From Candidatus Jorgensenbacteria bacterium (lineage in GTDB: Bacteria; Patescibacteriota; Minisyncoccia; UBA6257; GWB1-50-10), in the NCBI GenBank assembly GCA_043797305.1, contig JAZDPW010000012.1, forward strand, positions 1-56,418: DNA of 56,418 bases. The letters run 5' to 3'. Below the pieces are notes generated by a model. That model was not told the DNA's origin. It saw only the letters and a program-made list of their open reading frames with translations, and searched no databases. The position numbers and the translations under genes were made by a program. Numbering within the stretch: the first letter of the stretch is position 1; each line of letters opens with the position of its first letter. Below are positions 3,344 through 49,213 of the stretch, piece after piece.

Positions 3344-3358
3344 AATTGTTCAGGACCC

Positions 3359-6395: not shown

Positions 6396-6445
6396 TTATT
6401 AACGTATAACTTCTCTAGTTCCACTCTCTGACGGAGGTAAGAAAC

Positions 6446-6652
6446 ATGCCGTGGGACATACCATGGGCGGTCCCCATCATCGGCGCCATCTGTGTAGCGG
6501 CCGGGTTTCTCACCGCCTGCCTTTTCGGTGAGGCCGTCGCCTCGTCGATGCAGATCCGGATCGTCGATGGGCAGACGACCCGGAGGAAATCGTGGATTCT
6601 CCTCCTGGTCGGGCTCGTACTCACCTTCTTCGGGATCGTGCTCCTGTGGTAG
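6446..6652 (+). CDS. Small two-TM membrane protein in a GC-rich islet
   Basis: 68-aa ORF with two hydrophobic segments separated by a basic loop. GGAGG lies 8 nt before the ATG. The segment is GC-rich. Confidence 0.4.
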   Translation: MPWDIPWAVPIIGAICVAAGFLTACLFGEAVASSMQIRIVDGQTTRRKSWILLLVGLVLTFFGIVLLW

Positions 6653-6731
6653 CCGATCCCGCGACAAAGCAACACACCCTGGTTGTCTCAATGGATTTTA
6701 GTCCAGCGAGGCGGCCGGGGTGTTGTATTTT

Positions 6732-6773
6732 ATCTGCCCTAGGTTTTAACCTAGGTTAAAACCTAGGGCAGAT
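6732..6773. repeat. Perfect 42-bp palindrome (candidate operator or terminator)
   Basis: ATCTGCCCTAGGTTTTAACCT|AGGTTAAAACCTAGGGCAGAT is self-complementary with no mismatch and contains CCTAGG three times. Confidence 0.9.
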
Positions 6774-6791
6774 GTGGTATGATAATTTAAT

Positions 6792-6965
6792 ATGACAAGG
6801 AGGGAAATTTTTGACGAAGACGTAAGGAATATTCAAAAATCGAAACGGAGCTATTACATCACGCTCCCCATTCGCCACGTGCGGGAATTGGGATGGCGGG
6901 AGACCCAAAAGGTGGTGGTGAAAAAAGAAGGAAAGAAATTAATCGTCGAAGATTGGAAACCATGA
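6792..6965 (+). CDS. AbrB/SpoVT-like small DNA-binding protein (57 aa, absent from the ORF track)
   Basis: Own translation: MTRREIFDEDVRNIQKSKRSYYITLPIRHVRELGWRETQKVVVKKEGKKLIVEDWKP*. The 'YYITLPIRHVRELGW...VVV...GKKLIV' pattern resembles swapped-hairpin AbrB/MazE domains. Its stop overlaps the next gene's start (ATGA at 6962-6965). Confidence 0.6.
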   Translation: MTRREIFDEDVRNIQKSKRSYYITLPIRHVRELGWRETQKVVVKKEGKKLIVEDWKP

Positions 6966-18678: not shown

Positions 18679-18812
18679 ATCCCGTTAGAAGTCCTAGGCA
18701 TAAAAATTCCAATGGAATTTTTATGCAGGGCACTAACGAGAACAAACCAAGCCAATCATTATTCACCAATATGACAAGGTCAATATTAAATAAAACAGAC
18801 TTCTAACGGGAT
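18679..18812 (+). repeat. TIR-bounded intergenic element, copy 1 (134 nt)
   Basis: ATCCCGTTAGAAG (18679-18691) is the exact inverted complement of CTTCTAACGGGAT (18800-18812). An internal perfect 13-bp AT-rich hairpin lies at 18698-18726. The right repeat contains the ATG of the Nudix gene. Confidence 0.85.
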
Positions 18813-19287
18813 GAAAGAACTTTCTGCCGGAATAATAATTTACAGACGGACCAAGGAAGGTCCGAAGTTTTTGCTCCTCTATCACGGCGGGCGGTACTGG
18901 AATTTCCCGAAAGGAAAAATCGACGACTCTTTGGGTAAAGAGACGACTTTCAAAGCCGCTCTTCGGGAAGTGAGGGAAGAAACAGGCATCCTGCCCCGCG
19001 ACTTGCGTATCAACAGCTGGTTCAAGAGTTACGACAAATACGTTTTTACTCAAAAAGGCAAAAAGGTTTTCAAGACGGTCGTTTATTATCTTGCCGAAAC
19101 GAACGAGCGAGACGTGAAAATTTCGGACGAGCATTCCGGTTTCGGCTGGTTTCTCGAGAAAGAAGCCCTAAGAATGCTTCTCTACGGCAACCTGAAAAAT
19201 AATCTGAAAAAAGCTTATGAAGTCGTTCAAGGAAAGCGTTTACCCCCACACCAAACGAGGACTAATCCGAAGCTGGAGAGAAAGTGA
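18811..19287 (+). CDS. NUDIX hydrolase
   Basis: Nudix box GKIDDSLGKETTFKAALREVREETGI. Confidence 0.85.
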   Translation: MKELSAGIIIYRRTKEGPKFLLLYHGGRYWNFPKGKIDDSLGKETTFKAALREVREETGILPRDLRINSWFKSYDKYVFTQKGKKVFKTVVYYLAETNERDVKISDEHSGFGWFLEKEALRMLLYGNLKNNLKKAYEVVQGKRLPPHQTRTNPKLERK

Positions 19288-21922: not shown

Positions 21923-21956
21923 AAAAAACCGCCTTAAACAAGGCGAGTTTTTGTTT
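21923..21956. terminator. Bidirectional hairpin between the PKD gene and the tmRNA 3' end
   Basis: AAAAAA-CGCCTT-aaac-AAGGCG-AGTTTTTGTTT. Confidence 0.45.
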
Positions 21957-21957
21957 G

Positions 21958-22277
21958 TGGACATGGCGAGAGTCGAACTCGCGTGTAGAGAGTTTCTCAA
22001 AAATCGTCTACAGGCTTACCCGCCGTAGAGGCGAGGAAATTTGGTTCCATGGTTTAGCTTACGACTATCGAACCGTTTCATCGTAAGCGAGCTCAATGTA
22101 TTACACCGGTTGAACCCTTATTGAGCATCAGGAACCGATGCCCGCTTAAGCGAAAGCTAAAGCAGGAGCTGCAACTTTGTTGTTGGCAGTTAAATTTGTT
22201 TGCCGAATTTTTAACGAGTTTCGGCGGCTCGGCCTGCAAATTCTCGAAAACGCACTCTGTCAAAGCCCATCATGCCC
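21958..22277 (-). ncRNA. ssrA: tmRNA (SsrA)
   Basis: The 5' GGGCAUG pairs with the 3' CAUGUCC-A, including G3:U70. T-arm GCGAG-UUCGACU-CUCGC. The tag reading frame GCC AAC AAC AAA GTT GCA GCT CCT GCT TTA GCT TTC GCT TAA encodes ANNKVAAPALAFA* (22146-22187). Lies directly downstream of smpB. Confidence 0.85.
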
Positions 22278-26512: not shown

Positions 26513-26693
26513 CTGCGAACAATGCTATAACGCCGAAATCGTTTAAAGGTAATCTCTCGGTAAATCTCGGGACTCAAATTTATGGTAGAATTTATATCAC
26601 TGAAGGTTGTGTGAGCACAGATCATAAGGCAACCCCGCCTCTGGCGGGATGCTCAAATTTATAGCTTCACTTCGTTTCAGATAAATTTGGCAC

Positions 26694-29600
26694 ATGCTAA
26701 GAAAAATAAAGGATTTTTCGCTGCCGGAAGTTGAGGAGAAAGTTCTCAAGTTCTGGACCGAAAACAAGGTTTTTGAGAAGTCGCTCAATAACCGAAAAAA
26801 CAAAAAGAAATTTGTTTTCTTCGAAGGTCCGCCGACGGCAAACGGCCGGCCAGGTCTTCATCACGTTCTAGTCCGTTCCTTTAAAGACATAATCCTCCGC
26901 TACAAAACGATGACGGGGTTTTTCACGCCGCGGCGCGGCGGTTGGGACACTCACGGTCTCCCGGTTGAAATCGAGGTGGAAAAGGAGCTGGGCTTGAAAT
27001 CCAAGCAGGGGATTGAAAAATACGGTATCGCCGAATTCAATCGAAAATGCCGTGAATCGGTTTGGCGGTACAAGGACGAATGGGAAAAGCTCACCCGCCG
27101 CATCGGTTTCTGGTTGGACATGGACAATGCTTACGTTACTTACGAGCCAAAATACATCGAAACGCTTTGGTGGATAATTTCCGAAATTTGGAAAAAGAAA
27201 CTTTTATACAAAGGTTACAAAGTCGTGCCGTGGTGCACTCGTTGCGGCACCGGCCTTTCTTCCCACGAACTCGCCCTGGGGTACAAGGAGGTTGAAGAAA
27301 ACTCGGTTTATTTGAAATTCAGGAGTAAAAGCGGAAAATTGAAGAACGCTTATATCCTTTCGTGGACTACCACTCCCTGGACGTTGCCGGGGAATGTCGC
27401 TCTTGCGGTAAACGCCAAAGTGAAATACGTATTGGCGGAAAAGAACGGGGAAAAGTTAATTTTAGCCAAAGAACGGATCTCAGCTCTCGGCGAGTCACCG
27501 GAAGTTTTGAAAGAATTTTCAGGCAAAGAACTTTTGGGCTTGGAATACGAGCCGCTTTTTAAGGTTTCGGCGCTTAAGTCCAGGACTTCATACAAAGTTT
27601 ATGCCGCCGATTTCGTGACAATCGAAGAGGGTACGGGCGTGGTCCATACCGCGGTGATGTACGGCCCGGACGACTATGATCTCGGGATAAAAGTCGGCTT
27701 GCCTCAGTACCACACCGTCGACGAGAAAGGATTTTTCCTGAAGAACGTGCCGGTTGTGGGCGGTATGTATGTCAAGGACAAAAAGACCGAAGAAAAAATC
27801 ATAGATTATTTAAAAACCAAAAAGTATTTGCTGAAAACCGAACTCTACAAGCACGATTACCCATTTTGCTGGCGTTGCAGCACGCCGCTTCTCTACTACG
27901 CCCGCGATTCCTGGTTTGTGGCGATGTCGAAGCTTCGGGCGAAACTTATCGCTTCCAACAATAAAATCAACTGGATTCCGGAGAACATAAAACAAGGCCG
28001 TTTCGGCGAATGGCTTCGGGAAGCGAAAGATTGGGCTTTTTCCCGCGAACGTTATTGGGCAACGCCGTTACCCGTCTGGATTTGCGATAAATGCGGTGCG
28101 GCGGAGGTTGTGGGCGGCGTGGAGGAACTCGAGAAGCACTTAGGTAAGAGCACGAATAAGTACATTCTTGTACGGCACGCGGAGGCCAAGAATAACGTAG
28201 AAGGTATCGTTAGTTGTTGGCCGGAGAAGAAGAAATACCCTCTCACCACTATTGGAAAAGACCAGGCTTTCCAGCTCGGTCAGGAAATGAAAAAACGGAA
28301 AGTAGATTTGATATTTGCTTCCGATGTGCAAAGAGCCAAAGAAACTGCCGAGATAATTTCCAAGGAAACCGGTCTAAAAGTCGTTTATGACCCGCGGTTA
28401 CGGGAGTTGAACATCGGCGATTTTAACGGTAAACGCCACGAGGAATACAGCCGTTATTTCAGCGATCCCCGCGAACGTTTTAGTCGCCCGGTTCCCAACG
28501 GCGAATCTCTTTATGAAGTAAAGAAACGAGTTTTTGATTTTATAAAGTCCGTCGAAAAGAAATACAAAAATAAAACTATTATTGTGGTAGGCCACGGCGA
28601 TCCTTTATGGATGATGCAAAGCGTAATGGCCGGGCTTTCGGACGGAGACATGACTGGGGAAGACGGTCTTAAAAATTTATATCCCGAAAAAGGCAAAGCC
28701 TATCCGGCGCATTTTAGAAACATCTCCCGCAACGAAATTGGCGAGTTGGACCTACACCGTCCTTACATTGATGGAATTCATTTCCCTTGTCCCAAACCGC
28801 GGTGTAAAGGCAAAATGGCGCGGGTAAAAGAAGTTGTTGACGGTTGGTTCGATTCCGGAGCAATGCCTTTCGCCCAAAATTATTACCCTTTCGATAAAAA
28901 ATTGGAGTTTCCGGCCGATTTCATAGTTGAAGGCGTTGACCAGACCCGGGGCTGGTTTTATACCCTCCTTGCTACCGCTGTCCTCTTAGGCAAGGGCGCG
29001 CCTTATAAGAACGTGATTTCCCTGGGACTGATCTTGGATAAAAACGGCCAGAAGATGTCTAAGTCCAAGGGCAACGTCGTGAATCCCTGGGAAATGGTCC
29101 AAAAATTCGGAGCGGACGCGATTCGCTGGTATTTCTACACCATAAACCCGCCCGGCGAGTTCAAGCGCTTCGACGAAAAAGACATCATAAAAGGAGCCCG
29201 CCAATTCATTTCTCTTCTCTATAATTCATTCGCTTTCCTGAACACCTATGATACCGGAACGCATAGGATTCCGCAGTTTACCGCTAAAACCGCAAACTCA
29301 AACGTTTTGGACAGGTGGATTGTTGCCCGTCTTCATCAAACCATTGATTCGACAACCAAGGATCTGAATCGTTATGAGGTCGGGGGAGCGGCTCGCGGAA
29401 TCGAGAGTTTCGTAAACGATCTCTCGCGTTGGTATATCCGTCGTTCCCGTCGCCGGTTCCAAAAACCAGAGAGCCGAAAAGATTACGAGATGGCTCTTAG
29501 CACGCTAAATTACGTGCTTTTGGAAACGAGCAAGCTTATTGCGCCGTTTACGCCGTTCTTCGCCGAAGCTTTGTATAAGTCATTAGTCATAAATCATTCG

Positions 29601-30869: not shown

Positions 30870-31850
30870 TTAAATAAAAAGTCCAATTTTCTTTTTGACT
30901 TCCAAGAGTTTTTTGGAGGCGACAGCGTTTGCTTTTTTGTTCCCCGAAGCGAGCGCTTTTTTAATTTCCGCAGTTTTTATTCTTTTCTTCCTTTCCTGGA
31001 ACGGCCGGAGGGCGCGGATTACGATTTCAGCCAGACCCTTTTTAAACTCGGCGTAGCCCTTACCGGCATACATTTTTTCAATCGCATTCACCGGTTTGCC
31101 GGAGAGCTCGGAATAAATCAAGAGCAGATTACTCACACCGGGCTTCGACTTCTCGTCGTATTTGATTTCTTTCCCCGAATCAGTCGTTGCCCGCATTACT
31201 TTCTCGCGGATTTTTTCGGGCGAGTCTTCTAGGAAAAGACAACCGGTAGGCTGAGATTTGGACATTTTTTTAGTTGGGTCATCCAAACTCATCAGGCGCG
31301 GCACTTTGGTAAGAAGCGGTTTTGGTTCGATAAAAGTTTTACCGAATTTGTTGTTGAACTTTCTTACAAGCGTCCGAGAAAGCTCAAGGTGTTGTAGCTG
31401 GTCTTCGCCGACCGGCACCACCGCCGCGTCGTAGAGGACGATGTCGGCAGCCATGAGCGCCGGGTAGGTCAAGAGACCGATATTGATGTTTTGTTTTTGG
31501 GCTTCGGATTTGTTTTTAAACTGCGTCATCCGCTCCATTTCCCCCAAAGGGGCGACGGTTTCGAAAATCCAACCAAGTTCCGGGTGAGCCGGCACTTCCG
31601 ACTGCTGAAAAATGACGGAGTTTTTGCCGATGCCGGCGGCAAGATAATCGGCCGTGAGGTCTAGAATTTGCTTCGGTTTCTCCCGCGGGTCGAAAAATTC
31701 CGTAAGCGAATGGAGGTCAGCGATGAAAAAATAACACTCGTATTTGCCGGAATTCTGGAGCTCGACGAAGTTTTTAAGAGCGCCCAAATAGTTTCCTAAG
31801 TGGAGTTTCCCTGTGGGCTGGATGCCCGATACAAGAATTGGTTTTGCCAT
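30870..31850 (-). CDS. trpS: Tryptophan--tRNA ligase
   Basis: GIQPTGKLHLGNYLG (HIGH) and KMSKS. Confidence 0.9.
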   Translation of the reverse strand: MAKPILVSGIQPTGKLHLGNYLGALKNFVELQNSGKYECYFFIADLHSLTEFFDPREKPKQILDLTADYLAAGIGKNSVIFQQSEVPAHPELGWIFETVAPLGEMERMTQFKNKSEAQKQNINIGLLTYPALMAADIVLYDAAVVPVGEDQLQHLELSRTLVRKFNNKFGKTFIEPKPLLTKVPRLMSLDDPTKKMSKSQPTGCLFLEDSPEKIREKVMRATTDSGKEIKYDEKSKPGVSNLLLIYSELSGKPVNAIEKMYAGKGYAEFKKGLAEIVIRALRPFQERKKRIKTAEIKKALASGNKKANAVASKKLLEVKKKIGLFI

Positions 31851-33595
31851 TATACCTCTATTATAACCGGTAAAATCATCGGTCGGCGCTTGGTCTTATT
31901 GTAGAGGAATTGACCGATTTGGTCGCGAATCAGAGACTTGATGTAGTCGGCGTCAACCGTCTGATGCCGCGGGATGCGGCCTAAAATCCCCCTGATTCTC
32001 CGGCGAATTTCATCCAATAATTCCTTGTGGTCCTTGAGGTAAATGAAGCCGCGGGAGATGATATCCGGATTTTTGAGAACCCGGCCGCTCTGGCGGCTTA
32101 GTGTCGCGATGACAACCACCATTCCTTCCTGGGCAAGAGTGAGTCGGTCGCGGAGGACCACCTCACCGACATCGCCCACTCCCAAGCCGTCAACCATGAC
32201 GTAGAAGGCCGGAATTTTTTCGCCGCTTATGACGGCGGAATTTTTGGTAAACTCCACCACCAAGCCGTTGTCGGCAATCAGGGTTTCTTCCGGTTTCAGG
32301 CCCACTTCATTCTGGGCGAGTTTCGCGTTTTGGGCGCGCATAAAGTAGTAGCCGTGGATGGGCAGGAAAAAGCGGGGCTTTACGAGCCTTATTACGGTTT
32401 TCAGCTCTTCCTGAGGAGCGTGGCCCGACGAGTGAATGTCGAGCATCTTGTAGTGATAAATGGTCGCACCCTGGCGGGTGAGATTGTCTTTGAGGTTCTG
32501 AACGCTTCTTTCGTTTCCCGGCACGATTGAGGCAGAGAGGACAACCGTATCGGTTTTCTTTATTCTTACGTGCTTGTGTTCGCCGTTTGCAATGCGCATC
32601 AGAGCCGCATTCGGTTCGCCTTGGGCGCCGGTCGCAAGGACCATTACTTGCTCGTCCGGATGCTTATTCACTTCTTCTATCGGGATAAGCGTGCCTTTTT
32701 GGATTTTAAGGTAGTTAAGATTTTGGGCTATCTGGATGTTGGTTTTCATCGAGTAGCCGCTTATCGCCACTTTTCTTTTCAGCCGTTCGGCAATTTTTAT
32801 GATTTCGCCCAAACGGTCCAAGAGCGAAGAGAAAGTGCCGACGACTATTCTGCCTTTAGCCGACTTGAATATTTTTTCGAGTTCCTTTTCAACCACTCTT
32901 TCGGAAAGGGAAAAGCCCGGCGTCTCCGCTCCGGTTGAGTCGAGCATTAAGGTGTGGATTTTTTGTTCGCCGACCCATTTCCAGGCATCCAGTCCCCGGG
33001 GCTTGCCCTCGTTGTCGTAATCGAACTTGAATTCGCCGGGATGGACAATATTGCCTACCGGCGTGTGAAAAATCATTCCGACTCCTTCGGGAATATTGTG
33101 GATGACGTCGAAGAAAGTGACCGAAAAGTGCTCTCCCAGCCTGTGAGTTTCTTTGCCCTTCACGATTACGAAGGCGGGTTTCGGCGAGTTCGGGAAATCT
33201 TCCTGTCTTTTAAGGATTATTTCCTTGCTGATTTCAGTCGTGTAAATCGGCGGGTTGCCGAGTTTGTGGAGGACGTAAGGAATGGCGCCAATGTGGTCAT
33301 AGTGGCCGTGGGTGATGATGAGCGCCTTGATGTGCTGTTTTCTGGTTTCAAGATAAGAGACGTTGGGGATAATGTAGTCGATGCCGGGCGTTTCTTCTTC
33401 GGGAAACTGCAAACCGGCGTCAACAATGACGATTTCATCCTTGTATTCCAGGAACATCATGTTGCGGCCGATTTCTTCCAAGCCGCCGAGCGCCGCCCAG
33501 CGGACTATTTCTTCCTTGCCGGTTCTCATCGGTTTTTTGACCGGCGCCGCGGCTCTTGTTCTTCTTCTCATTGTTTTTGCTGTTTGTGTAACCAT
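31850..33595 (-). CDS. rnj: Ribonuclease J
   Basis: MBL motif ITHGHYDHIG, beta-CASP region, and the HSSGHA motif. Confidence 0.9.
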   Translation of the reverse strand: MVTQTAKTMRRRTRAAAPVKKPMRTGKEEIVRWAALGGLEEIGRNMMFLEYKDEIVIVDAGLQFPEEETPGIDYIIPNVSYLETRKQHIKALIITHGHYDHIGAIPYVLHKLGNPPIYTTEISKEIILKRQEDFPNSPKPAFVIVKGKETHRLGEHFSVTFFDVIHNIPEGVGMIFHTPVGNIVHPGEFKFDYDNEGKPRGLDAWKWVGEQKIHTLMLDSTGAETPGFSLSERVVEKELEKIFKSAKGRIVVGTFSSLLDRLGEIIKIAERLKRKVAISGYSMKTNIQIAQNLNYLKIQKGTLIPIEEVNKHPDEQVMVLATGAQGEPNAALMRIANGEHKHVRIKKTDTVVLSASIVPGNERSVQNLKDNLTRQGATIYHYKMLDIHSSGHAPQEELKTVIRLVKPRFFLPIHGYYFMRAQNAKLAQNEVGLKPEETLIADNGLVVEFTKNSAVISGEKIPAFYVMVDGLGVGDVGEVVLRDRLTLAQEGMVVVIATLSRQSGRVLKNPDIISRGFIYLKDHKELLDEIRRRIRGILGRIPRHQTVDADYIKSLIRDQIGQFLYNKTKRRPMILPVIIEV

Positions 33596-35562: not shown

Positions 35563-35928
35563 TTAATCTTTATGCGTCGATCTTGCAGAAAAGCCGATAA
35601 GGCCATTTACGATGCTAAAAAGCAGGGTAGCAAGAAGGAGTGGAAAATACCCTTCTATTGTAAGGGGATTGCTCAGGATGTCAAGTAGGTAAAGCGTTAA
35701 GGCGTTTAAGACGATTATAAAAAGACCGAAGGTAAGCACTATGAACGGTCCCAGGATGAGTTTTAAAACAGGGCGGAGGATGAGATTTATGGCGGTAAGA
35801 ATAGCGGCTGCGATAAAGAGGGCGACAAAGTCGCCGGAAAAATCAAAGCCGGTTATAAAGTAAGCCGCCGCAAGAATGGCGATGGCGTTGGAGACGACGT
35901 GGAGGATGATATTGCCTAAGAGTTTCAT
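35563..35928 (-). CDS. Four-TM membrane protein (phage holin family 4_2 / DUF360-like)
   Basis: 121 aa. ...AAILTAINLILRPVLKLILGPFIVLTFGLF... resembles PF04020. Recalled from memory, not searched. Confidence 0.45.
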   Translation of the reverse strand: MKLLGNIILHVVSNAIAILAAAYFITGFDFSGDFVALFIAAAILTAINLILRPVLKLILGPFIVLTFGLFIIVLNALTLYLLDILSNPLTIEGYFPLLLATLLFSIVNGLIGFSARSTHKD

Positions 35929-35941
35929 CTTTATATTGTAT

Positions 35942-35986
35942 CAAAAAAAGCGCGCCGAGGGTCAGATACAGATAGACCATCGGCGC
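35942..35986 (-). terminator. Intrinsic terminator at the 3' end of the candidate large ncRNA
   Basis: On the minus strand: GCGCCGA-U-GGUC...GACCC-UCGGCGC followed by GCUUUUUUUGA. Confidence 0.7.
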
Positions 35987-36592
35987 ACGGGTGCTGGATC
36001 GGCGGGGGGCGAAGCCGGAACGTTCCCTCCCCCGGAACACGGGAACGATTCCCGGTTCCTTGGCGTTTCGGCAACGCCCCACCGCCTATGTGGTGCCGGT
36101 AGCACATCGAGAACGCCAACAGGTCCGGAATCCGTGGACTTATACCTGTCAACGCTTCGGTGTGCTACCGGCGGGTGGGGAGCACAGGTCAGGGCCACAA
36201 GGAAACCCTCGGGAATCCTCGGACACAAACCGTGTGCTCCACCACCGTGTATGTACCCGTACTGATGGAGCGCTGCTGACGACCCCTACGTTCCGAGGCG
36301 TGGGGTCAACAGACGGATAAGAAGAACCTCCCACAGGCCTCCTTGCCCGAGAGCGCCTATCAGCAACACTCTACCAGTACGGGTCGGTGTGGTACGAGCG
36401 TACCACTGCTCTGTTTAGGGGAAGAGCTGACCACGTCGTCGCCTTGGCGGCTCGTTGTGGTTCCACTCACTTTCTCCCCAGATCCGTTGGTTGAAGGACC
36501 CGGTCATGACTATCGGCCCTTTTTGGATCGGAGTAGCGCGGTACAACCCGTACCACACCTATTTATGTCAAATAGCTTACCACTTTAGGGTA
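35945..36592 (-). ncRNA. Candidate large structured ncRNA (about 650 nt, unclassified)
   Basis: GC-rich, with only short overlapping ORFs in all frames. Many nested helices. Bounded by its own promoter and terminator. Confidence 0.5.
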
Positions 36593-36598
36593 ATAGCT

Positions 36599-36627
36599 AT
36601 TGTATAGCCCCCCTTTTAGAGTGTCAA
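36599..36627 (-). promoter_or_regulatory. Near-consensus sigma70-type promoter for the candidate ncRNA
   Basis: On the minus strand: TTGACA (36627-36622), a 17-nt spacer, then TACAAT (36604-36599). The -35 hexamer overlaps the gpmI stop codon. Confidence 0.55.
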
Positions 36628-38195
36628 GAAGTCAGTTGCCTAAGCAGGCTCTCGCCGGTCATTTCTTCCGGTTTGGGGATTTTCATAAGTTCCAGGAGAG
36701 TTGGAGCCACATCCGAGAGGATGCCGATAACCGGCATTTTCCGGGGGCTGGTGTCGGGGATGGAAAAAGGTTTTTCAAATTCCCGGGCCACAAGATAAAT
36801 CGGCACGGGGTTTGGGTCGTGAAAAGTTTCCGGCTCGCCGGTCTGGAGATTTAAAACCGATTCGGCATTGCCGTGGTCGGAAGTGACGACAAGAACATGG
36901 TTTCCTTCCAGTACTTCCTTTACCAATCGCCCCAGCTCCTGGTCAACGATTTTTACGGCCTTAAGAGTCGCCTCGTAATTGCCGGTATGGGCGATAAGGT
37001 CGGGGTTTGCGTAGTTTATAAGGATGAAATCGAATCCGCCTTCCCTTAAAGCGATAATCGCCCGGTCGGTTACTTCTTTTGCCATCATTTCCGGATTCTC
37101 CTCGTGCCGGATAGTGGTTTTCGAAGGGACGAGAACCCGGAACTCGTTCGGATAGGGAGCCTCCCGCAGGCCGTTGAAAAAGTAGGTGATGTGGGCGTAT
37201 TTTTCCGTTTCGGCAATCCGGAGCTGGGTAAGGCCCTTATCGGATAGCAGTTTCCCGAGAGGATTTTCCACCTTGCTTTTCGGGAAAGCGGCCGGGGTTT
37301 TTTGGTCATCGGTGTACCCGGTCATCGTGACTACAAAAGTATTTTTAAGGGGTTTAATCGGGAACTTATTGAAATCCGGGTTCAGAAACGGTTCGGAAAT
37401 TTGGCGCATGCTGTCTTCCCGGAAATTGAAGAAGATGATGGTGTCGTTGTCCTTGACTGGGTGCGGCTCGATGACGGTCGGTTCAATGTATTCGTCGTCG
37501 AGGTCCCGGCCGTAAATTTTGTTTATTGCTTCTTCCAGATTTGCCGCCGTTTGATTTTCGCCGGTAATGGTCTGATAAGCTTTTTCGGTTCTTTCCCAGA
37601 GATTGTTTCTGTCCATGCCGAAATAGCGGCCCGTCACGCTCGCGATAACGCCCACGCCGGTTTTGGCAATAACTTCATTGAGTTTTTTGAGAAGAGGAAG
37701 AACCGAACGAGGCGGACTGTCGCGGCCGTCGGAGAAAAGATGAAGATAAAGATTTTGCATTTTCTCTTTTGCCGCCATTTCAATTAAGGCGGCGAGGTGG
37801 TCGAAGGAAGCGTGGACGTTGCCTTGGGTGAGAAGGCCGATGAGGTGAACCGAAGAAATATTCTCTTTGGCGTGGGAGAAGGCGTTTTTAAGTTCGGGTA
37901 CCTGGAAAAAGGAGCCGTCTTCAATCGCCATCGATATTTTCGGGAAATACTGATAGATAATTTTTCCGGCGCCGAGGGTAAGGTGTCCTACTTCGCTGTT
38001 GCCTTCTTCTTCCCAGGGGAGGCCGATGGCGATGCCGGAGGCCTGAAGAGCACCCTTGGGAAATTTCGTTTCCAGTTCCTTTATGGTTTCCAAATCTGCC
38101 TTATAAATGGGGTTTGACTCGTTGAATTCGCCCAAACCCCAGCCGTCGAGGATTGCGAGAATAAAGGTTCTTTTCATTAAATCTAATTCTATCAT
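36624..38195 (-). CDS. gpmI: 2,3-bisphosphoglycerate-independent phosphoglycerate mutase
   Basis: LAILDGWG start, GNSEVGH motif, and C-terminal TSDHGNAE. Confidence 0.9.
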   Translation of the reverse strand: MIELDLMKRTFILAILDGWGLGEFNESNPIYKADLETIKELETKFPKGALQASGIAIGLPWEEEGNSEVGHLTLGAGKIIYQYFPKISMAIEDGSFFQVPELKNAFSHAKENISSVHLIGLLTQGNVHASFDHLAALIEMAAKEKMQNLYLHLFSDGRDSPPRSVLPLLKKLNEVIAKTGVGVIASVTGRYFGMDRNNLWERTEKAYQTITGENQTAANLEEAINKIYGRDLDDEYIEPTVIEPHPVKDNDTIIFFNFREDSMRQISEPFLNPDFNKFPIKPLKNTFVVTMTGYTDDQKTPAAFPKSKVENPLGKLLSDKGLTQLRIAETEKYAHITYFFNGLREAPYPNEFRVLVPSKTTIRHEENPEMMAKEVTDRAIIALREGGFDFILINYANPDLIAHTGNYEATLKAVKIVDQELGRLVKEVLEGNHVLVVTSDHGNAESVLNLQTGEPETFHDPNPVPIYLVAREFEKPFSIPDTSPRKMPVIGILSDVAPTLLELMKIPKPEEMTGESLLRQLTS

Positions 38196-38327
38196 CTTGC
38201 GGGTTTATAAACCCTAAAAATAGGAAAATTAAGAGATTAGCCAAATTGACAAAAGCGAAATCCCGGTTTATCCTAAAAAGAATAAATTCGTTAAAAAAGT
38301 CGATGAACATCAAACTTGCATACTTAT

Positions 38328-39857
38328 ATGATTTTAGGAACCAGTTTGCCGGTGGCGCTGGGTTTGGTTGCTCTTGGAGTTGCGATAGGGTACCTTATTC
38401 GGCGTCAGCTGGCCTTGGGCAAGATATCTTCGCTCGAGCGCAAAATTCAGGAAAAATCTTCCTCGGCCGAGCAAGAAGCTAAAGAGGTCGTTTTGGCGGC
38501 TAAGACACAGGCCGCTTCAATCTTAACCGAAGCTCAAAAAGAAGAGCGGGAGCGGAAACACGAGCTCCGGCGGCTTGAAGAGCGTCTTTTGAACAAGGAA
38601 GACTCGCTTGAGAAACAGCGGGTAGACTTTGAGTCTCAGGAGGGGGCTCTGAAAAAAGAGCAAGTCCAGCTTAAGGAGAAAGAAGAAGATTTCAAAAATC
38701 TTGAGGAAAAAATAAAAGTTGAACTGGAAAAAGTTTCGGGACTCACTCGGGAAGAAGCGAAGAGCAAGCTTTTTGAAGAAATTCAGAAATCCCACGGAGA
38801 AGAAATGGTTGAAATGCTGGGGCGGTTTGAGCGGGAGAAAAAGGAAGCGGCAGAAGCCAAAGCGCTCGATGTCATCACCTCGAGCATCCAGCGTTATGCC
38901 CGAAATCACGTTGCCGATATCACTACCAGCATTGTTAATCTTCCGAACGAAGATATAAAAGGAAAAATAATCGGCCGGGAGGGGAGGAACATCAGAACTT
39001 TCGAGCGGCTGACCGGAGTGGAAGTCATAATCGACGAGACGCCGGAGAGCTTGCTTCTTTCTTCTTTCGACCCCCTGCGTCGGGAGGTGGCGCGTATCGC
39101 TCTTGAAAAGCTTATTGCCGACGGCCGGATTCAGCCGGCGAAAATCGAAGAGAAGTTTGAAGAAGCCAAAGAAGAGCTTGAGGAGCGGATAGGACGCATC
39201 GGCGAAGAAGCCACTTATGAAGTTGGTATTCTTGACCTACCTAAGGAAATTTTGAAACTGCTCGGCCGCTTGAATTATCGCACCAGTTACGGCCAGAACG
39301 TGCTTACGCACTCAATCGAAATGACTCACATTGCCGGAATGATGGCCTCCGAACTGGGATTGAACGTCGAGGTAACCAAGAAAGGCGCTCTTCTCCACGA
39401 TATCGGCAAAGCGATTGACCACGAGGTGGATGGAACCCACGTTGAACTCGGCCGGAAAATCCTTCAGAAATATGGGGTTGCTCCGGAGGTGATAAAAGCA
39501 ATGGAGGCTCACCACGAAGAATATCCTTTCTCGTCTCCGGAATCGTATGTAGTTGCAGCGGCTGACGCGATTTCGGCTGCCCGGCCCGGTGCCCGGCGTG
39601 ATACCCTCGAAAAATACCTGAAACGACTGGAAGATATCGAGAAAGTAGTGAAAAGCTTCTCGGGAGTGCGGGACGCTTATGCCGTTTCCGCCGGCCGGGA
39701 GGTGAGAGTGTTCGTTACGCCCGAGAAAATTGACGACTTCGGGGCGCTTCAACTCGCCAAACAGATTGCCGGGAAAATAAAATCGGACGTTAACTACCCG
39801 GGTGAGATAAAAGTGACCGTTATCCGGGAAATTAAGGCTGTGGAATATGCCCGGTAG
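38328..39857 (+). CDS. rny: Ribonuclease Y
   Basis: N-terminal TM segment, coiled coil, KH domain (GKIIGREGRNIRTFE), HD domain (LLHDIGKA). ATG 38328 preferred over the track start 38316 (TTG). Confidence 0.9.
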   Translation: MILGTSLPVALGLVALGVAIGYLIRRQLALGKISSLERKIQEKSSSAEQEAKEVVLAAKTQAASILTEAQKEERERKHELRRLEERLLNKEDSLEKQRVDFESQEGALKKEQVQLKEKEEDFKNLEEKIKVELEKVSGLTREEAKSKLFEEIQKSHGEEMVEMLGRFEREKKEAAEAKALDVITSSIQRYARNHVADITTSIVNLPNEDIKGKIIGREGRNIRTFERLTGVEVIIDETPESLLLSSFDPLRREVARIALEKLIADGRIQPAKIEEKFEEAKEELEERIGRIGEEATYEVGILDLPKEILKLLGRLNYRTSYGQNVLTHSIEMTHIAGMMASELGLNVEVTKKGALLHDIGKAIDHEVDGTHVELGRKILQKYGVAPEVIKAMEAHHEEYPFSSPESYVVAAADAISAARPGARRDTLEKYLKRLEDIEKVVKSFSGVRDAYAVSAGREVRVFVTPEKIDDFGALQLAKQIAGKIKSDVNYPGEIKVTVIREIKAVEYAR

Positions 39858-42405: not shown

Positions 42406-42479
42406 TGGTGCGGGATGGGAGAATCGAACTCCCGTCCACAGTTTGGAAAACTGTTATTCTGCCACTAAACTAATCCCGC
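42406..42479 (-). tRNA. tRNA-Gly (anticodon UCC)
   Basis: GCGGGAT/ATCCCGC acceptor, anticodon loop TTTCCAA, T-loop TTCGATT. CCA is encoded. Confidence 0.85.
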
Positions 42480-42528
42480 TTTCTTTAGCTATATCAATAT
42501 ACTATTTTTAAATCTCTCTTCATATTTT

Positions 42529-42603
42529 TGGTCGGGCCGCCGAGACTCGAACTCGGACTAAATCCTCCCAAAGGACTCGTGCTAGCCATTACACTACGGC
42601 CCG
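42529..42603 (-). tRNA. tRNA-Pro (anticodon UGG)
   Basis: CGGGCCG/CGGCCCG acceptor (C1:G72), anticodon loop TTTGGGA. CCA is encoded. Confidence 0.85.
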
Positions 42604-42648
42604 CCTCCTCTTTAAATTATCCGATTTACGGTTTAAAATCAAAAGCCT

Positions 42649-42720
42649 CCCCTCGTAGTTCAATGGACAGAACGAAAGGTTTCTAACCTTTTAATGCGGG
42701 TTCGATTCCTGCCGAGGGGA
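42649..42720 (+). tRNA. tRNA-Arg (anticodon UCU)
   Basis: CCCCTCG/CGAGGGG acceptor, anticodon loop TTTCTAA, T-loop TTCGATT. Confidence 0.8.
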
Positions 42721-42728
42721 CAAAAACC

Positions 42729-43469
42729 TTACTCCGGAACCATTACGCCAATGGTCCAGAGGAGAACTAAGCCAAGGATTATAAGTAAGAGGTGGGTGAA
42801 CTCTTCCGGTTTGCCTTTATGGTGAAGCTCGGGCATCAAATCGGACATGGCGATGTAGATGAATATCCCGCCGGCAAAGGCGGTGAGGATCGGGACGGCG
42901 TTCGGAATAAAGGGAATAAGAAAATACCCCGCAATTGCGCCAACCGGAGTGGTAAGAGCGGTCAAGAAATTATAAAGGAGAACCTTGCTTTTGCTGTAAC
43001 CGGCGTGGAGCAGAACTCCGAAGTCGCCGATTTCCTGTGGCACTTCGTGGAAAAAGATGGCAATGGTGGTGGCGATTCCGACCGGAGTGCCGAGGCTGAA
43101 ACTCAAAGCGATGATTACCCCGTCAATGAAATTGTGAATAGTATCACCAAAAAGGATAGTACCCGAAAAACTGTGGAACTCGCACCCTTCTATGTCGTGG
43201 CAGTGATACCAGCGGAGAAACTTTTCGAAGATAAAGAGCAGGAGGATGCCCGCCAGGGTAAAAATGAAAACATTTTTCCCGTCGCCGGCCGCTTCGAGCG
43301 CTTCGGGCAGAAGGTCAAAAAAGGCGGCGCCCAAAAGAGCTCCGATTGCAAAACTCACGAAAAAAAGAGAAGCCTTTCTTGCAACAACCTCCCTGGTAAG
43401 CAAAATAATCCCGCCCACGAGGGCGAAGACGCTGCCGACTAAACTTGCGATGATGATTTGGGCTAACAT
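42729..43469 (-). CDS. zupT: ZIP family metal transporter
   Basis: HNFIDG and HEVPQEIGDFGVL motifs in a polytopic protein. Confidence 0.8.
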   Translation of the reverse strand: MLAQIIIASLVGSVFALVGGIILLTREVVARKASLFFVSFAIGALLGAAFFDLLPEALEAAGDGKNVFIFTLAGILLLFIFEKFLRWYHCHDIEGCEFHSFSGTILFGDTIHNFIDGVIIALSFSLGTPVGIATTIAIFFHEVPQEIGDFGVLLHAGYSKSKVLLYNFLTALTTPVGAIAGYFLIPFIPNAVPILTAFAGGIFIYIAMSDLMPELHHKGKPEEFTHLLLIILGLVLLWTIGVMVPE

Positions 43470-43474
43470 TTATG

Positions 43475-43546
43475 TGCCGCGGGAGGGAATCGAACCCCCG
43501 ACGCCAGCCTCTTCGGGGCTGCGCTCTGCCACTGAGCTACCGCGGC
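43475..43546 (-). tRNA. tRNA-Phe (anticodon GAA) with C at position 33
   Basis: GCCGCGG/CCGCGGC acceptor, anticodon stem CAGCC/GGCTG, loop CCGAAGA. Confidence 0.75.
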
Positions 43547-43652
43547 GTTTTACCTCCTTTTCCATTCCAAAAGCTTTTAGCATTTTATTGTATTTTTTCT
43601 TGAGAAACAAGGTCGGAGAACGATTTCATTTTCGCCGCCAAAATTAACGCCA

Positions 43653-44294
43653 TTACTTAATAATCTGCCCGCCGATTTTCTCCGCCGTTTCCTCGGCCGC
43701 CGCTTCTTTTTTGATGAACGATTTCAGGAAATGCTTGGTGCCGAAGATGATAATCAAGATAATGACGACAACTACAATCTGTAAATTCCGGAAGAGGTCT
43801 ACTCCTTGGAGAACAATAAAGCCGGAAGCAATGAGAAAATAAACTATGCTGTTGCCGCCAAGCCAGAGGGCGTTTGCTATTAGTCTTGTCTTGGAGAATT
43901 TTACCCAGCTCATTTTCGTCCAGCCGCTCAAAGTCAGCATCGCGATGTTCATGTAAGCTACGAACCGGGAAAGAATGAGGAGTAGAGTAGCGTTTTTATT
44001 GACGTGAAACTCCACCCGGGCGTAATGAGGAATTTTCCTTTCAATGAAACGGCCAAAGCGGCTGTCGTTGAAATAGCGTCCGAGAAAATAAAAAAAATTT
44101 TCGTAGACGAATACGCTCATCCCGGCCGCGAACAGGAAACTACCAATTGTGAGGTGCCCTGTAACGACGAGATACATCGAAAGAAGCATCGTAATTTCAC
44201 CCTGAAGGAGTATTCCCACGGCAATTATCACGTGCCGCCAGGCATAATGGGTCATTATGAATTGTCCGGCCGTCTCAATTATCTGGTTGTCCAC
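43653..44294 (-). CDS. DedA/VTT-domain family membrane protein
   Basis: 213 aa and polytopic, with a general DedA-like pattern (…GE.T.L....LV..G….F..G…). Judged by eye. Confidence 0.5.
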   Translation of the reverse strand: MDNQIIETAGQFIMTHYAWRHVIIAVGILLQGEITMLLSMYLVVTGHLTIGSFLFAAGMSVFVYENFFYFLGRYFNDSRFGRFIERKIPHYARVEFHVNKNATLLLILSRFVAYMNIAMLTLSGWTKMSWVKFSKTRLIANALWLGGNSIVYFLIASGFIVLQGVDLFRNLQIVVVVIILIIIFGTKHFLKSFIKKEAAAEETAEKIGGQIIK

Positions 44295-44334
44295 GAGTCC
44301 ATTATACCTTAAAATTATTTAGGGAGATTAAGCC

Positions 44335-44724
44335 ATGATTATTAATTCGGAAAACGTGAGATTCAAAGCGGCGCGCTCTTCGGGTCCGGGTGGACAAAAA
44401 GCCAACCGCCGTTCGACAAAGGTCCAGCTTTGGGTTAAAATAGGGGACCTGGCCTTAAGTTCTCTGGAAAAGAAGAGATTAAGGAAGAAACTTGTGCGTC
44501 ACATCAATCATCTCGACGAACTTCAGGTAGAGAACGAAGAAGAGCGCTCGCAGAAAATGAATCGGGAGAATGCGTTCAGAAAGTTAAATGAATTGATAAG
44601 CGGGGCGCTTAAAGTTCCCAAGAAACGAGTCCCGACCTTGCCGCGCCGGAGCGCCGAGGAGGCGAGAATTCGCGCCAAGAAAATTAAAAGCGAGAAAAAG
44701 AGGGGCAGGCGGATAGTTCATTAG
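44335..44724 (+). CDS. arfB: Alternative ribosome-rescue factor ArfB-like peptidyl-tRNA hydrolase
   Basis: GGQ motif SGPGGQKANRRSTKV in a 129-aa protein with a basic C-terminal tail. Confidence 0.8.
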   Translation: MIINSENVRFKAARSSGPGGQKANRRSTKVQLWVKIGDLALSSLEKKRLRKKLVRHINHLDELQVENEEERSQKMNRENAFRKLNELISGALKVPKKRVPTLPRRSAEEARIRAKKIKSEKKRGRRIVH

Positions 44725-44752
44725 TAATTAGAAATTTGTAAGATTAAGATAT

Positions 44753-44827
44753 GGTGCCTATGGTGTAGTGGTAACACAACGCTCTGTGGCAGCGTTATCA
44801 CCGGTTCAAATCCGGTTAGGCACCCCA
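44753..44827 (+). tRNA. tRNA-His (anticodon GUG)
   Basis: An extra G-1 opposite C73, anticodon loop CTGTGGC. CCA is encoded. Confidence 0.85.
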
Positions 44828-45684: not shown

Positions 45685-45693
45685 TAAAAATGA

Positions 45694-45827
45694 ATCCCGT
45701 TAGAAGTCCTTGGCACTAAAAATTTCACAGAAATTTTTATGCTCGGTGCTAACAGGGACAAACCAAAAAATCACTATTTACTAATATAACAAGGTCAACA
45801 TCAAATAAAACAGGCTTCTAACGGGAT
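45694..45827 (+). repeat. TIR-bounded intergenic element, copy 2 (134 nt)
   Basis: ATCCCGTTAGAAG (45694-45706) is the inverted complement of CTTCTAACGGGAT (45815-45827). Colinear with copy 1 across its full length, with mostly matching sequence. The right repeat contains ATG 45826. Confidence 0.85.
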
Positions 45828-46047
45828 GAAAAAAACCTTAACGATTGTTATCATAGTAATCGTTCTTGCCTTGGTTATCTGGTTTATTTTTCGCTCGCCC
45901 GAGCCGGTTTTTTCGCCGGAGGCGGGGACGACTGGGGTTTTGGGAGGTGACACAACTTCGGCTATTAATAACGACTTAAACAGCCTGGACTTAGGTGACC
46001 TGGATAGTGAATTCCAGCAGATTGACGCTGATTTAAACCAACTCTAG
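45826..46047 (+). CDS. Small N-terminally anchored protein
   Basis: 73 aa. MKKTLTIVIIVIVLALVIWFIF TM segment followed by an acidic tail. Confidence 0.5.
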   Translation: MKKTLTIVIIVIVLALVIWFIFRSPEPVFSPEAGTTGVLGGDTTSAINNDLNSLDLGDLDSEFQQIDADLNQL

Positions 46048-48240: not shown

Positions 48241-48291
48241 AGAATATGAGGGTTGACTACCTCATTTAATTAATTAAAATTAATTCTATGA

Positions 48292-48423
48292 ATCCCGTTA
48301 GAAGTTCTCGGCAGAAAATTTTAGGTTAAAATTTTTTGCTCGGAACGAACGGGTCAAGTGAGAAAATCAAAATTATTTTAGAATAAATACAAAAGTCGCG
48401 TAAATACAAACTTCTAACGGGAT
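48292..48423 (+). repeat. TIR-bounded intergenic element, copy 3 (132 nt)
   Basis: ATCCCGTTAGAAG (48292-48304) is the inverted complement of CTTCTAACGGGAT (48411-48423). The internal hairpin is retained through compensatory changes. The right repeat contains ATG 48422. Confidence 0.85.
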
Positions 48424-49213
48424 GAAAGAAACAACAAAAAATTATTTGGGGGTCGCGATAATCATTTCCATTCTCATTGTCGCTTTTTCGTCCTGGAGCT
48501 TCGTTCGTTCCTATTCCCGCTCGATTGAGCCGTCGTCTTTCCGGAGCTTTTCGGTTTCCGGTGAGGGAAAAATTGTCGCTGTGCCCGACGTGGCGGAATT
48601 CTCTTTTAGTGTGATTACCCAGGGCGGTACCGATATCGCGAGCTCCCAGAAAACAAACACGGAAAAAACCAATGCCGCGATAGATTTCGTTAAATCCAAA
48701 GGAGTGGACGCGAAAGATATAAAAACGGCGAGCTACAACCTAGAACCGCGCTACCAGTATTACAACTGCCTCCCGAATTACCTTGAGGACGGCAGTGTGC
48801 GGCCCTGTCCGCCGGCCGAGATTGTCGGCTACACCGTGACCCAAACCGTTCTCGTGAAAGTCCGGGACTTTACCAAAATCGGTGATATCTTGGGAGGGGT
48901 TGTTGGCGCGGGCGCAAACAGCGTTTCCCAACTGAGCTTTACGATTGACGACGAAGAAAAAGTTCAGGCGGAAGCAAGGGAAGAAGCAATAAACGTAGCC
49001 AAGGGAAAAGCCGAGTCTATTGCCAAAGCCGCGGGTTTTAGCGTGGGCCGCCTTCTCTCCATCAGCGAATCGGGTGTTTATCCGCGGGCCTATTACGCTA
49101 AGGAAATGGCTTACGGCCTAGGCGGTGGAGATACGGCCGCCGCCGTGCCGAGCATAGAACCCGGCTCGCAAGAAGTAACCGTAGACGTTACTCTCACTTA
49201 CGAAATTCGTTAA
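48422..49213 (+). CDS. SIMPL (DUF541) domain protein
   Basis: N-terminal anchor, then GEGKIVAVPDVAEFSFSV...NLEPRY...GYTV.Q.V.V, typical of SIMPL / 26-kDa periplasmic proteins. Confidence 0.7.
   Translation: MKETTKNYLGVAIIISILIVAFSSWSFVRSYSRSIEPSSFRSFSVSGEGKIVAVPDVAEFSFSVITQGGTDIASSQKTNTEKTNAAIDFVKSKGVDAKDIKTASYNLEPRYQYYNCLPNYLEDGSVRPCPPAEIVGYTVTQTVLVKVRDFTKIGDILGGVVGAGANSVSQLSFTIDDEEKVQAEAREEAINVAKGKAESIAKAAGFSVGRLLSISESGVYPRAYYAKEMAYGLGGGDTAAAVPSIEPGSQEVTVDVTLTYEIR

Follow-up and report, generated by a model that had tools for sequence, protein, structure and literature searches.

The window analysed in this work is a 56,418-nucleotide (nt) stretch of DNA (contig JAZDPW010000012.1, GenBank assembly GCA_043797305.1) from a groundwater bacterium, a Jorgensenbacteria-like member of the Paceibacterota within the Patescibacteria. 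Between gpmI and a gene for a small membrane protein it was found to contain a GC-rich gap that probably holds the gene for a large structured RNA of a new family, about 650 nt in length. The gap comprises 695 nt (35929–36623), and all features of this locus described below are on the minus strand. On its upstream side lies gpmI (36624–38195), identified by the Pfam domains iPGM_N and Metalloenzyme, and on its downstream side a gene (35563–35928) for a 121-amino acid (aa) four-helix, four-transmembrane (4-TM) protein of the Phage_holin_4_2 family (PF04020), here called the holin-like gene. Beyond it are secG and a gene for an oligopeptide-type solute-binding protein (SBP_bac_5). A first-pass annotation of the sequence had proposed a structured RNA at this site, and its description of the surroundings held: the neighbours identified by Pfam are those it had named, the GC content is 0.58–0.65 over 35900–36500 compared with ~0.49 for the window, and the gap contains only short, overlapping open reading frames (ORFs) of up to 129 aa in several frames, the five ORFs of the gap having no Pfam match. 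The genes for RNase Y (38316–39857) and RNase J (31850–33595) flank the gpmI–RNA locus.

The gap begins and ends with transcription signals. A -35 hexamer, TTGACA (36622–36627), which includes the stop codon TGA of gpmI, is separated by a 17-nt spacer from the -10 hexamer TACAAT (36599–36604), giving 11 of 12 matches to the consensus. At the other end an intrinsic terminator, GUGCGCCGAUGGUC...GACCCUCGGCGCGC followed by U7 (35943–35988, with the U-run at 35949–35943), is recognisable in both the sequence and the predicted fold, and its stem is formed by GCGCCGA (35986–35980) and UCGGCGC (35958–35952). A simple terminator scan had skipped it, as its loop exceeds 8 nt. Both signals had been noted in the first reading of the DNA and were found to be conserved in all relatives described below. 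Transcription of the RNA would thus run along the minus strand from a strong promoter of the sigma-70 type, starting at about 36594, a position inferred from a fixed 4-nt distance between the -10 box and the sequence ATTACCC, and ending at about 35943 at the terminator. As gpmI lacks a terminator of its own ahead of the RNA, gpmI transcripts must also read into this region.

In order to find relatives, gpmI was used as an anchor, and 118 loci (denoted by L numbers) were collected from genome, metagenome and assembly collections; as the relatives were gathered through gpmI synteny, all statements on distribution concern the gpmI–holin site. Paceibacterota widely have gpmI, the holin-like gene and secG in this order, and the gap between the first two genes is mostly 0–60 nt long and holds just a -10 box. 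A GC-rich, strongly folding insert of 400–1170 nt was seen only in loci with a gpmI at least 63% identical to that of the window. Its length is 652 nt in L001, 418 nt in L002, 608 nt in L054, 900 nt in L107, 790 nt in L117, 617 nt in L112, 1172 nt in L113, 950 nt in L003 and 550 nt in L004, and L109, L110 and L115 also carry it, such that the family consists of 13 distinct loci, namely the window and 12 GC-rich syntenic gaps. At this site the insert is missing from all loci with less than 63% gpmI identity and from two genomes inside the clade, L108 (gpmI 76% identical; a 200-nt AT-rich gap) and L118 (66%; a 55-nt gap). No second copy was found in the window or among the 118 loci, and a repeat or mobile element was discarded as a candidate on this ground. 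In L107, the source annotation has a 228-aa gene at 2789–3475 (minus strand) covering the RNA region and the 3’-end of gpmI; its product has no Pfam match, and the call probably arose spuriously from GC-rich non-coding RNA.

The members of this family diverge rapidly in primary sequence, and blastn and nhmmer connect near neighbours only. A small set of elements is nevertheless shared. A promoter of the form TTGACn-17(±1)-TAnnnT at the gpmI stop codon recurs in each of the other 12 GC-rich syntenic gaps, and TTGACn is absent from the loci without the RNA. In 8 of the 13 members (including the window, L001, L002, L107, L109, L110 and L117) a fixed 4-nt spacer separates the -10 box from a hairpin of the form AUUACCC-loop-GGGUAA. 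This is followed by a linker, which is UUGACAU in the window, L001, L002 and L112, UUGAAAU in L054 and L110, UAGACAA in L107 and L109, and UUUACAU in L113. An AU-rich AyAUA linker lies ahead of a shared core domain (CD) closed by GUCGrGGUGyGG/CCGCACCyCGAC, and either yCAGCAC or CAAGCAC stands directly before the terminator (window, L001, L002, L054, L107, L109, L110, L112, L113, L115 and L117). Every member ends in a GC-rich hairpin with a U-run, that of L001 differing from the terminator of the window by a single G-U to G-C change. The window RNA has all of these elements, namely the promoter at the gpmI stop, the AUUACCC hairpin, UUGACAU, the core, CAGCAC and the terminator. The part common to the family amounts to only ~215 nt of core plus linkers, and no invariant block of junction nucleotides suggestive of a ribozyme was seen.

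Directly after the terminator, all family members carry the sequence TGnTAnAAT. In the window this extended -10 element, TGATACAAT (35935–35943), lies outside the RNA, 6 nt before the ATG (35928) of the holin-like gene; the terminator itself is 15 nt from this ATG, and its U-run abuts the -10 box. Where the RNA is missing, the same -10 box stands 6–12 nt before the holin-like ATG. The holin-like and secG genes therefore have their own promoter, kept with and without the RNA, and the RNA gene with its own promoter and terminator was inserted between gpmI and an existing leaderless-type promoter. The distance of only 6–12 nt, without a Shine-Dalgarno sequence, was observed at 35935–35943 in the window and in the gaps of L006, L008, L016, L020, L049, L057 and L083, which suggests that holin-like/secG mRNAs of these Paceibacterota are leaderless or near-leaderless.

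The minus-strand sequence of the region is predicted to fold with a minimum free energy (MFE) of -338.5 kcal/mol (z = -13.07), compared with z = -7.58 for the plus strand. Among 300-nt segments of the window, the absolute MFE is lowest here, and in a scan with the MFE regressed on GC content the region lies 3.8 standard deviations below the regression line. G-U pairs account for 29 of 153 pairs of the consensus described below; these would be C-A mismatches if read from the other strand, so that the minus strand is the sense strand.

Conservation of this fold was assessed on alignments of two or three sequences each, with structures taken from RNAalifold on the same alignments. For the window and L001, which are ~79% identical, RNAalifold gave 153 pairs, 14 of them compensatory, against 1–2 in slid controls. 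Over the reliably aligned 3’ two-thirds, differences occur at 13 of 236 paired positions, all of them pair-preserving, and at 40 of 137 unpaired positions; stems thus change about 5-fold more slowly than loops. The large indels are located at the tips of hairpins or add a whole branch, namely an insertion of 20 nt at the tip of domain M3 in L001 and 57 alignment columns for an additional branch of domain M5 in the window (domains are described below). Comparison of L113 with L115 gave 145 pairs, with 28 compensatory and 21 one-sided changes, against 1–4 compensatory changes in slid controls, and none of 500 shuffles scored as high. The CD fold common to the window, L054 and L117 has 54 pairs, 12 of them compensatory against 1–3 in slid controls. 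A covariance model built from this three-sequence alignment, R1, located the CD exactly where inspection had placed it in L107 (19 bits, E = 7e-5), L112 (E = 0.013), L109 (E = 0.13), L002 (E = 0.36) and L001 (E = 0.93), and for the weaker of these matches the exact agreement with the predicted boundaries would be what counts. R1 also recovered CD-like closing helices in M5 of L001 (17.2 bits) and in a second unit of L113.

The same alignments speak to coding capacity. Indels that are not multiples of 3 make up 14 of 19 between the window and L001 and 15 of 20 between L113 and L115, and mismatches display no codon phase (23/15/17). Homologous regions therefore changed in an RNA-like and not in a protein-like manner, and stems proved protected, with compensatory pairs above the slid controls in the relatives; protein-like conservation and covariation were among the checks named in the first-pass annotation, and all of its checks that were run spoke for an independent structured non-coding RNA. 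As read from these comparisons, the region is non-coding and its helices are under purifying selection.

The architecture of the window RNA is as follows. At the 5’-end, H1 is a hairpin of UUACC-CUAAAGU-GGUAA (36577–36593), whose equivalent, (C)AUUACCC-loop-GGGUAA in the 8 members mentioned, is a perfect 9-bp hairpin in L117. The first-pass annotation had drawn a longer 5’ hairpin; its inner part, UUACC/GGUAA (36593–36577), is likely to be in the RNA, and its outer arm AATAGCT overlaps the -10 box and belongs to the promoter DNA. H1 is followed by the conserved single-stranded linker UUGACAU (36565–36571) and by the CD (36386–36559), a three-way junction in which a closing helix (36559–36550 with 36395–36386) encloses a small hairpin P1a, helix P2, hairpin A (36519–36496) and hairpin B (36479–36418). 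In the window the closing helix is shortened at its base (AAAUA-GGUGUGG/CCACACC-GACC). A local hairpin GTGGTAC-gagc-GTACCAC (36406–36389) that had been proposed earlier is found neither in the MFE fold nor in the conserved fold, and its 3’ arm instead closes the CD with 36559–36550; a 12-nt segment at this site is missing from L001 and L002. Hairpin A carries an apical 8-nt palindrome, GUCAUGAC (36510–36503). A kink-turn considered in hairpin B was rejected, as its G-A is not conserved in L117.

Domains M2–M5 all lie 3’ of the core. M2 (36256–36383) has a 24-bp closing helix around two hairpins (36348–36315 and 36307–36281) and is the best-kept block among the window, L001 and L002. After the linker UACAUACAC (36255–36247) comes the long hairpin M3, GGUGGUGGAGCACA/UGUGCUCCCCACC (36174–36246), which is present in the MFE fold and conserved in L001, and then M4, CCGGUAGCACA ... 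UGUGCUACCGG (36096–36171), also a long hairpin, in which only one-sided changes of the G-U type are seen relative to L001. A second linker, CACCACAUA (36095–36087), precedes M5 (36001–36086), a hairpin whose closing helix GGCGGUGGGGCG/CGCCCCCCGCC also occurs in L001. The additional M5 branch (36061–36010) is specific to the window and holds a 10-nt palindrome, GGAACGUUCC (36026–36017); M5 of L001 is a simple hairpin without it. Immediately 5’ of the terminator stands the single-stranded linker GAUCCAGCACC (35990–36000) with the CAGCAC motif. Three of the five helices recognised in the first reading, GACCCC...GGGGTC (36307–36281), GGCGTT/AACGCC (36078–36062) and GGTGG-GGAGCACA/TGTGCTCC-CCACC (36246–36233 with 36186–36174), recur in the MFE fold and are conserved in L001.

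Domain content varies between lineages. L002 consists of H1, CD, M2 and the terminator only. In L107, L109, L117, L112, L113 and L115 a variable domain of 300–570 nt lies between the linker equivalent to UUGACAU and the CD, and the interval between CD and CAGCAC is empty. As these members have no domains in that interval, M2–M5 are lineage-specific additions. Whole GC-rich hairpin domains have been added or lost around the core in different lineages. A second, smaller module of the core type (GUCGAGGCGCC...GGCGCCUCGAC-CCCAGCAC with its own terminator) was noted at 850–1015 of the L113 gap (L113 ~5390–5560) and at 745–829 of the L107 gap, which suggests that the RNA grew as a hairpin module was duplicated in tandem. 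The apical palindrome of hairpin A reads GUCAUGAC both in the window and in L117; that of L054 reads GUCUAGAC, a change of the two central nucleotides that leaves the loop self-complementary; elsewhere this loop has a 6-nt palindrome in L107 (CCAUGG) and L002 (UUUAAA) and none in L001. The retained palindrome is a single independent event with a chance of ~0.2, and is taken as a lead only.

The sequences were compared with known RNA families by cmscan against Rfam 15. The search covered 12 gaps, those of the window and of 11 relatives, with L117 left unscanned, and also the L022 gap; the E limit was 10 for the window region, 1 for L001–L004, L022 and the whole window, and 5 for L054, L107, L109, L110, L112, L113 and L115. 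At gathering thresholds the whole window gave one tmRNA and seven tRNAs only, and raising the limit to E = 1 added nothing. The tmRNA (21955–22277, minus strand, 123.8 bits) is ordinary, and five of the tRNA genes form a cluster within 42409–44824. At the permissive limit the RNA region itself had no credible match, the best being 18–20-bit matches to unrelated small RNAs, and no significant or relevant family was found for the 11 related loci. Specifically, the 12 gaps had no match to RNase P (RF00010/RF00011), to the signal recognition particle (SRP) RNA (RF00169/RF01854) or to 6S RNA (RF00013), and none to OLE (RF01071), ROOL, GOLLD, raiA or HEARO, all of which are included in Rfam 15. Intron_gpI, group-II and D1–D4 models also gave no match, and the flanking genes are complete and separate. 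The earlier failure to fit the element to RNase P, tmRNA, SRP RNA or an intron was thus upheld for the window and its scanned relatives. Distant-mode blastn against phage and plasmid collections had no match, and a literature search disclosed no structured RNA of this kind described in the candidate phyla radiation (CPR)/Patescibacteria beyond the RNase P paper (PMC8172020).

Individual resemblances were followed up by inspection. On reading all 13 sequences, neither CR-I (GGAAAGUCCGG) nor CR-V (ACAGAAnnnGGCUUA) nor ACAnAA...GGCUUA of RNase P was found, and the sole AAGUCC lies in a hairpin tip of M4 and is not conserved in L001. The sequence GGUGyGGUAAGAG of L054, L117 and L107 resembles the J11/12–P12 region of type A RNase P; here GGUAAG is one strand of a covarying helix (GGUAAG/CUUACC, changed to GGUAC/GUACC in the window) and not a conserved loop. 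The resemblance of hairpin B to the SRP sequence GCCAAGGC lies in a variable loop (GCCAA in the window, CUUGA in L054, UACA in L117), and sequence inspection found no GGAA/AGCA helix-8 motif. 6S RNA, a single irregular hairpin of ~180 nt with a large central bubble, was dismissed for lack of a cmscan match and because the fold here is multi-domain with a three-way junction. Seed-pairing by the linkers was also rejected, as complements of UUGACAU and CAGCAC occur at no convincing gene starts within the window. In L003, the gpmI–holin gap RNA includes at 5785–5839 a hammerhead core of canonical form, made up of CUGAUGA, GUCC-AAAA-GGAC and GAAA; its stem I comprises 7 bp and its stem III is short. 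The match to Hammerhead_3 (E = 0.04) reaches 28.7 bits, compared with a gathering score of 48.5, and the window RNA has nothing equivalent.

Three further features of the window were recorded. Copies of an element of ~145 nt that resembles a miniature inverted-repeat transposable element (MITE) are located at 18675–18819, 45690–45834 and 48288–48430, with terminal inverted repeats AATCCCGTTAGAAGTC ... GACTTCTAACGGGAT; the same repeats occur in the gpmI–holin gap of L028 (~5560–5690) and downstream of the RNA in L109 (~5500–5614). An intergenic motif at 26620–26700 consists of a GC hairpin followed by AUGCUCAAAUUUAUAGCUUCACUUCGUUUCAGAUAAAUUUGGCACAUG, directly after a -10 box TGGTAGAAT, and nhmmer ties it to two tandem copies in L109 (~5340–5480; E = 6e-8); such a motif could belong to a leader or to a small RNA. 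Finally, a 500-nt intergenic stretch at 6380–6900 folds strongly (z = -6.95), with a perfect 19-bp palindromic hairpin at ~6724–6782 and a second long hairpin. It gives spurious mir-1502 matches on both strands and probably represents terminators and a small membrane-protein ORF.

Judged by its sequence, then, the element is a single-copy, syntenic, clade-restricted, dispensable and separate non-coding unit, strongly promoted and terminated. We consider it probable, with moderate confidence, that it encodes a genuine trans-acting structural RNA of ~650 nt, representing a new family restricted to one clade of Paceibacterota. The 5’ hairpin and the terminator hairpin would cap the two ends of this RNA. 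In trans it would bind one or more proteins as their scaffold or decoy, or form a self-associating particle, and would be neither a ribozyme nor a cis-regulator. A structural role in trans is favoured because what is conserved is a helix and linkers rather than junction nucleotides, because the peripheral domains are exchangeable and because the downstream operon has its own promoter. The combination of one sequence-defined helix with three single-stranded linkers resembles a site recognised by a protein or by another RNA rather than a catalytic core. A more specific version, in which the RNA would found a class of large modular RNAs peculiar to one CPR lineage, the palindrome of hairpin A (GUCAUGAC or GUCUAGAC) drives homo-dimerisation or higher-order assembly of the kind recently observed with OLE, ROOL and GOLLD, and the exchangeable hairpin arms form the body of an RNA-only or RNA–protein particle, is a speculative proposal to which we give a low chance.

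Several observations weigh against a trans-acting structural RNA. Both the transcription start and the 3’-end are sequence-based predictions. The alignments comprise 2–3 sequences and the structures were derived by RNAalifold from the same data, so that the covariation counts lean towards structure, and the R1 matches in L001, L002 and L109 are individually non-significant (E = 0.13–0.93). The family is narrow and occurs patchily, in 13 distinct loci, from which it follows that the RNA is non-essential; two of these loci, L003 and L004, agree with the others in position, promoter, terminator and GC-rich folding without detected homology. As for a scaffold, the adjacent 4-TM protein differs in no RNA-linked way between the loci and has only 4–8 lysine plus arginine residues. 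The site also accepts other DNA elsewhere, namely the MITE-like element (L028), an extended inverted repeat (L022) or ORFs (L007, L037 and L045), which fits an insertion hot spot.

These unrelated inserts also suit a different explanation, that the element is a selfish or neutral, fast-evolving array of hairpins, a remnant or cargo of a mobile element, which is transcribed with no function for the organism. Its loss in L108 and L118, the fast turnover and the modules that look duplicated, with recurring units of AyAUA plus a GGyGGGG helix, point the same way. We nevertheless regard it as unlikely: the window and all other loci have one copy each, the element showed neither terminal repeats nor a transposase nor intron signatures, its stems change about 5-fold more slowly than its loops with every stem change keeping its pair, and core helix, linkers, promoter and terminator are retained down to 63% gpmI identity. 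Patescibacteria have tiny genomes under strong reduction, in which a neutral insert of 0.4–1.2 kb is unlikely to persist. The invariable position in every member, together with the read-through from gpmI and a terminator only 15 nt from the downstream ATG with its U-run touching the -10 box, could instead indicate action in cis, either as a long structured 3’ untranslated region of gpmI (a stabiliser or insulator) or as a very long leader or attenuator controlling read-through into the holin-like gene, secG and oppA. This is countered by the dedicated near-consensus promoter of every member, absent from the loci without the RNA, and by the extended -10 that the downstream operon has 6–12 nt from its ATG whether the RNA is there or not. 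A riboswitch or attenuator leader is unlikely on the latter ground, as, judged by sequence, the conserved TGnTAnAAT would intervene before the ORF. In addition, a length of 370–1000 nt with free gain and loss of domains is unlike known riboswitches and attenuators, and no cis-regulatory family of Rfam was matched, so that we find a role in cis decidedly improbable.

A universal RNA (RNase P, SRP or 6S) so diverged that it escapes Rfam deserves mention, since RNase P RNAs of the CPR often fall below the Rfam thresholds and have large helix extensions (PMC8172020). The strong promoter and high GC content are housekeeping-like, the window has no RNase P, SRP or 6S gene elsewhere in its 56 kb, and the likeness of GGUGyGGUAAGAG to RNase P has been noted above. 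Yet lowered thresholds allowed the Rfam model to find all CPR RNase P RNAs in that study (PMC8172020), and here there was no match even at E up to 5–10 in the 12 gaps scanned. CR-I, CR-V and the SRP helix-8 motif are missing, GGUAAG is accounted for by the covarying helix, members of the family differ 3-fold in length and domain content, and the RNA is missing at this site from L108, L118 and all more distant relatives. We therefore hold such an origin to be very unlikely. Translation of one or more small ORFs is hardly credible at all. ORFs of 61–129 aa do exist in several frames, and that of 61 aa (36149–36334, minus strand) follows an AAGGAGG located 3 nt before a GTG in M2; however, this Shine-Dalgarno-like sequence lies only 3 nt from the GTG and is base-paired in the conserved fold, the five ORFs are without Pfam matches, and the 14 of 19 frame-breaking indels relative to L001 and the lack of 3-periodicity are not those of a coding sequence.

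That genomes of well below one megabase keep a strongly promoted non-coding gene of 0.4–1.2 kb suggests that real costs are traded against benefits, and the gain and loss of domains around a small core offer a natural experiment on how large RNAs grow. The family is a target for metatranscriptomics, cryo-electron microscopy and pull-downs in groundwater Paceibacteria, and its region is flagged as prone to mis-annotation as protein by gene callers, as with the 228-aa call in L107. Given the narrow clade and the dispensability, its general importance may be modest.

To our knowledge, only a handful of bacterial RNA classes longer than ~400 nt are of unknown function (OLE, ROOL, GOLLD, HEARO and RNAs of raiA size) and none is known from the CPR, a group with minimal genomes and an unusual RNA biology. 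This would be the first large orphan structured RNA candidate in Patescibacteria of which we are aware. The first-pass annotation had likened it to OLE, ROOL and GOLLD, and the likeness stands for size and helix density and fails for the narrow clade, fast evolution and gain and loss of whole domains. Like OLE, the RNA is in the range of ~600 nt, densely paired and multi-domain, lies directly upstream of a gene for a small four-TM protein, and is dispensable with a function not obvious from its context. It differs in having no cmscan match and in its host, which belongs to the Patescibacteria and not to the Bacillota. OLE also has long stretches of invariant nucleotides, which the family downstream of gpmI does not. 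OapA, the protein partner of OLE, is a CNNM/CorB-like 4-TM protein that has a cluster of basic residues on its cytoplasmic side (PMC11332333; also PMC12265935), whereas the neighbour here is of PF04020 only, with 4–8 basic residues, and is found at this position also in many genomes that lack the RNA, with no change in sequence linked to it. An OLE-like pairing with the downstream 4-TM protein was rejected for these reasons, OapA being of a different family and the protein the same with and without the RNA, and a PDB sequence search on this idea gave nothing.

ROOL (RF03087) and GOLLD (RF01998) self-assemble into homo-oligomers (PMC12286853). They share with the present RNA a large size (0.5–0.8 kb), many helices, a function that is unknown and a patchy, non-essential occurrence, and the exposed 8-nt palindrome of hairpin A would be compatible with self-association by kissing loops. 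The RNA described here is not beside tRNAs or prophage genes; it is strictly syntenic and single-copy in a housekeeping neighbourhood, has a much narrower range and far less sequence conservation, and matches neither family by cmscan. The diverged RNase P RNAs of CPR genomes described by Lui et al. in 2021 (PMC8172020) come from the same group of organisms and are likewise GC-rich structured RNAs with helix expansions, missed by standard annotation. The present RNA has no P4/CR-I/CR-V core and no alignment to RF00010/RF00011, is absent at the site from close relatives and varies in the order of its domains. A parallel in the manner of discovery is with the sets of Weinberg and Breaker (2010 and 2017), in which orphan RNA motifs were reportedly found by comparative genomics of GC-rich intergenic regions and are now in Rfam. 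Here too a GC-rich intergenic region in a lower-GC genome has a promoter, a terminator and covarying helices and is confined to one lineage, and it differs in being several-fold larger than most of those motifs, modular, and without a match to any curated family. Thus the RNA is new as a family, with no Rfam family, literature description or sequence relatives outside its clade having been found, and as a kind of object, an orphan, large and lineage-specific structured RNA, it has precedents.

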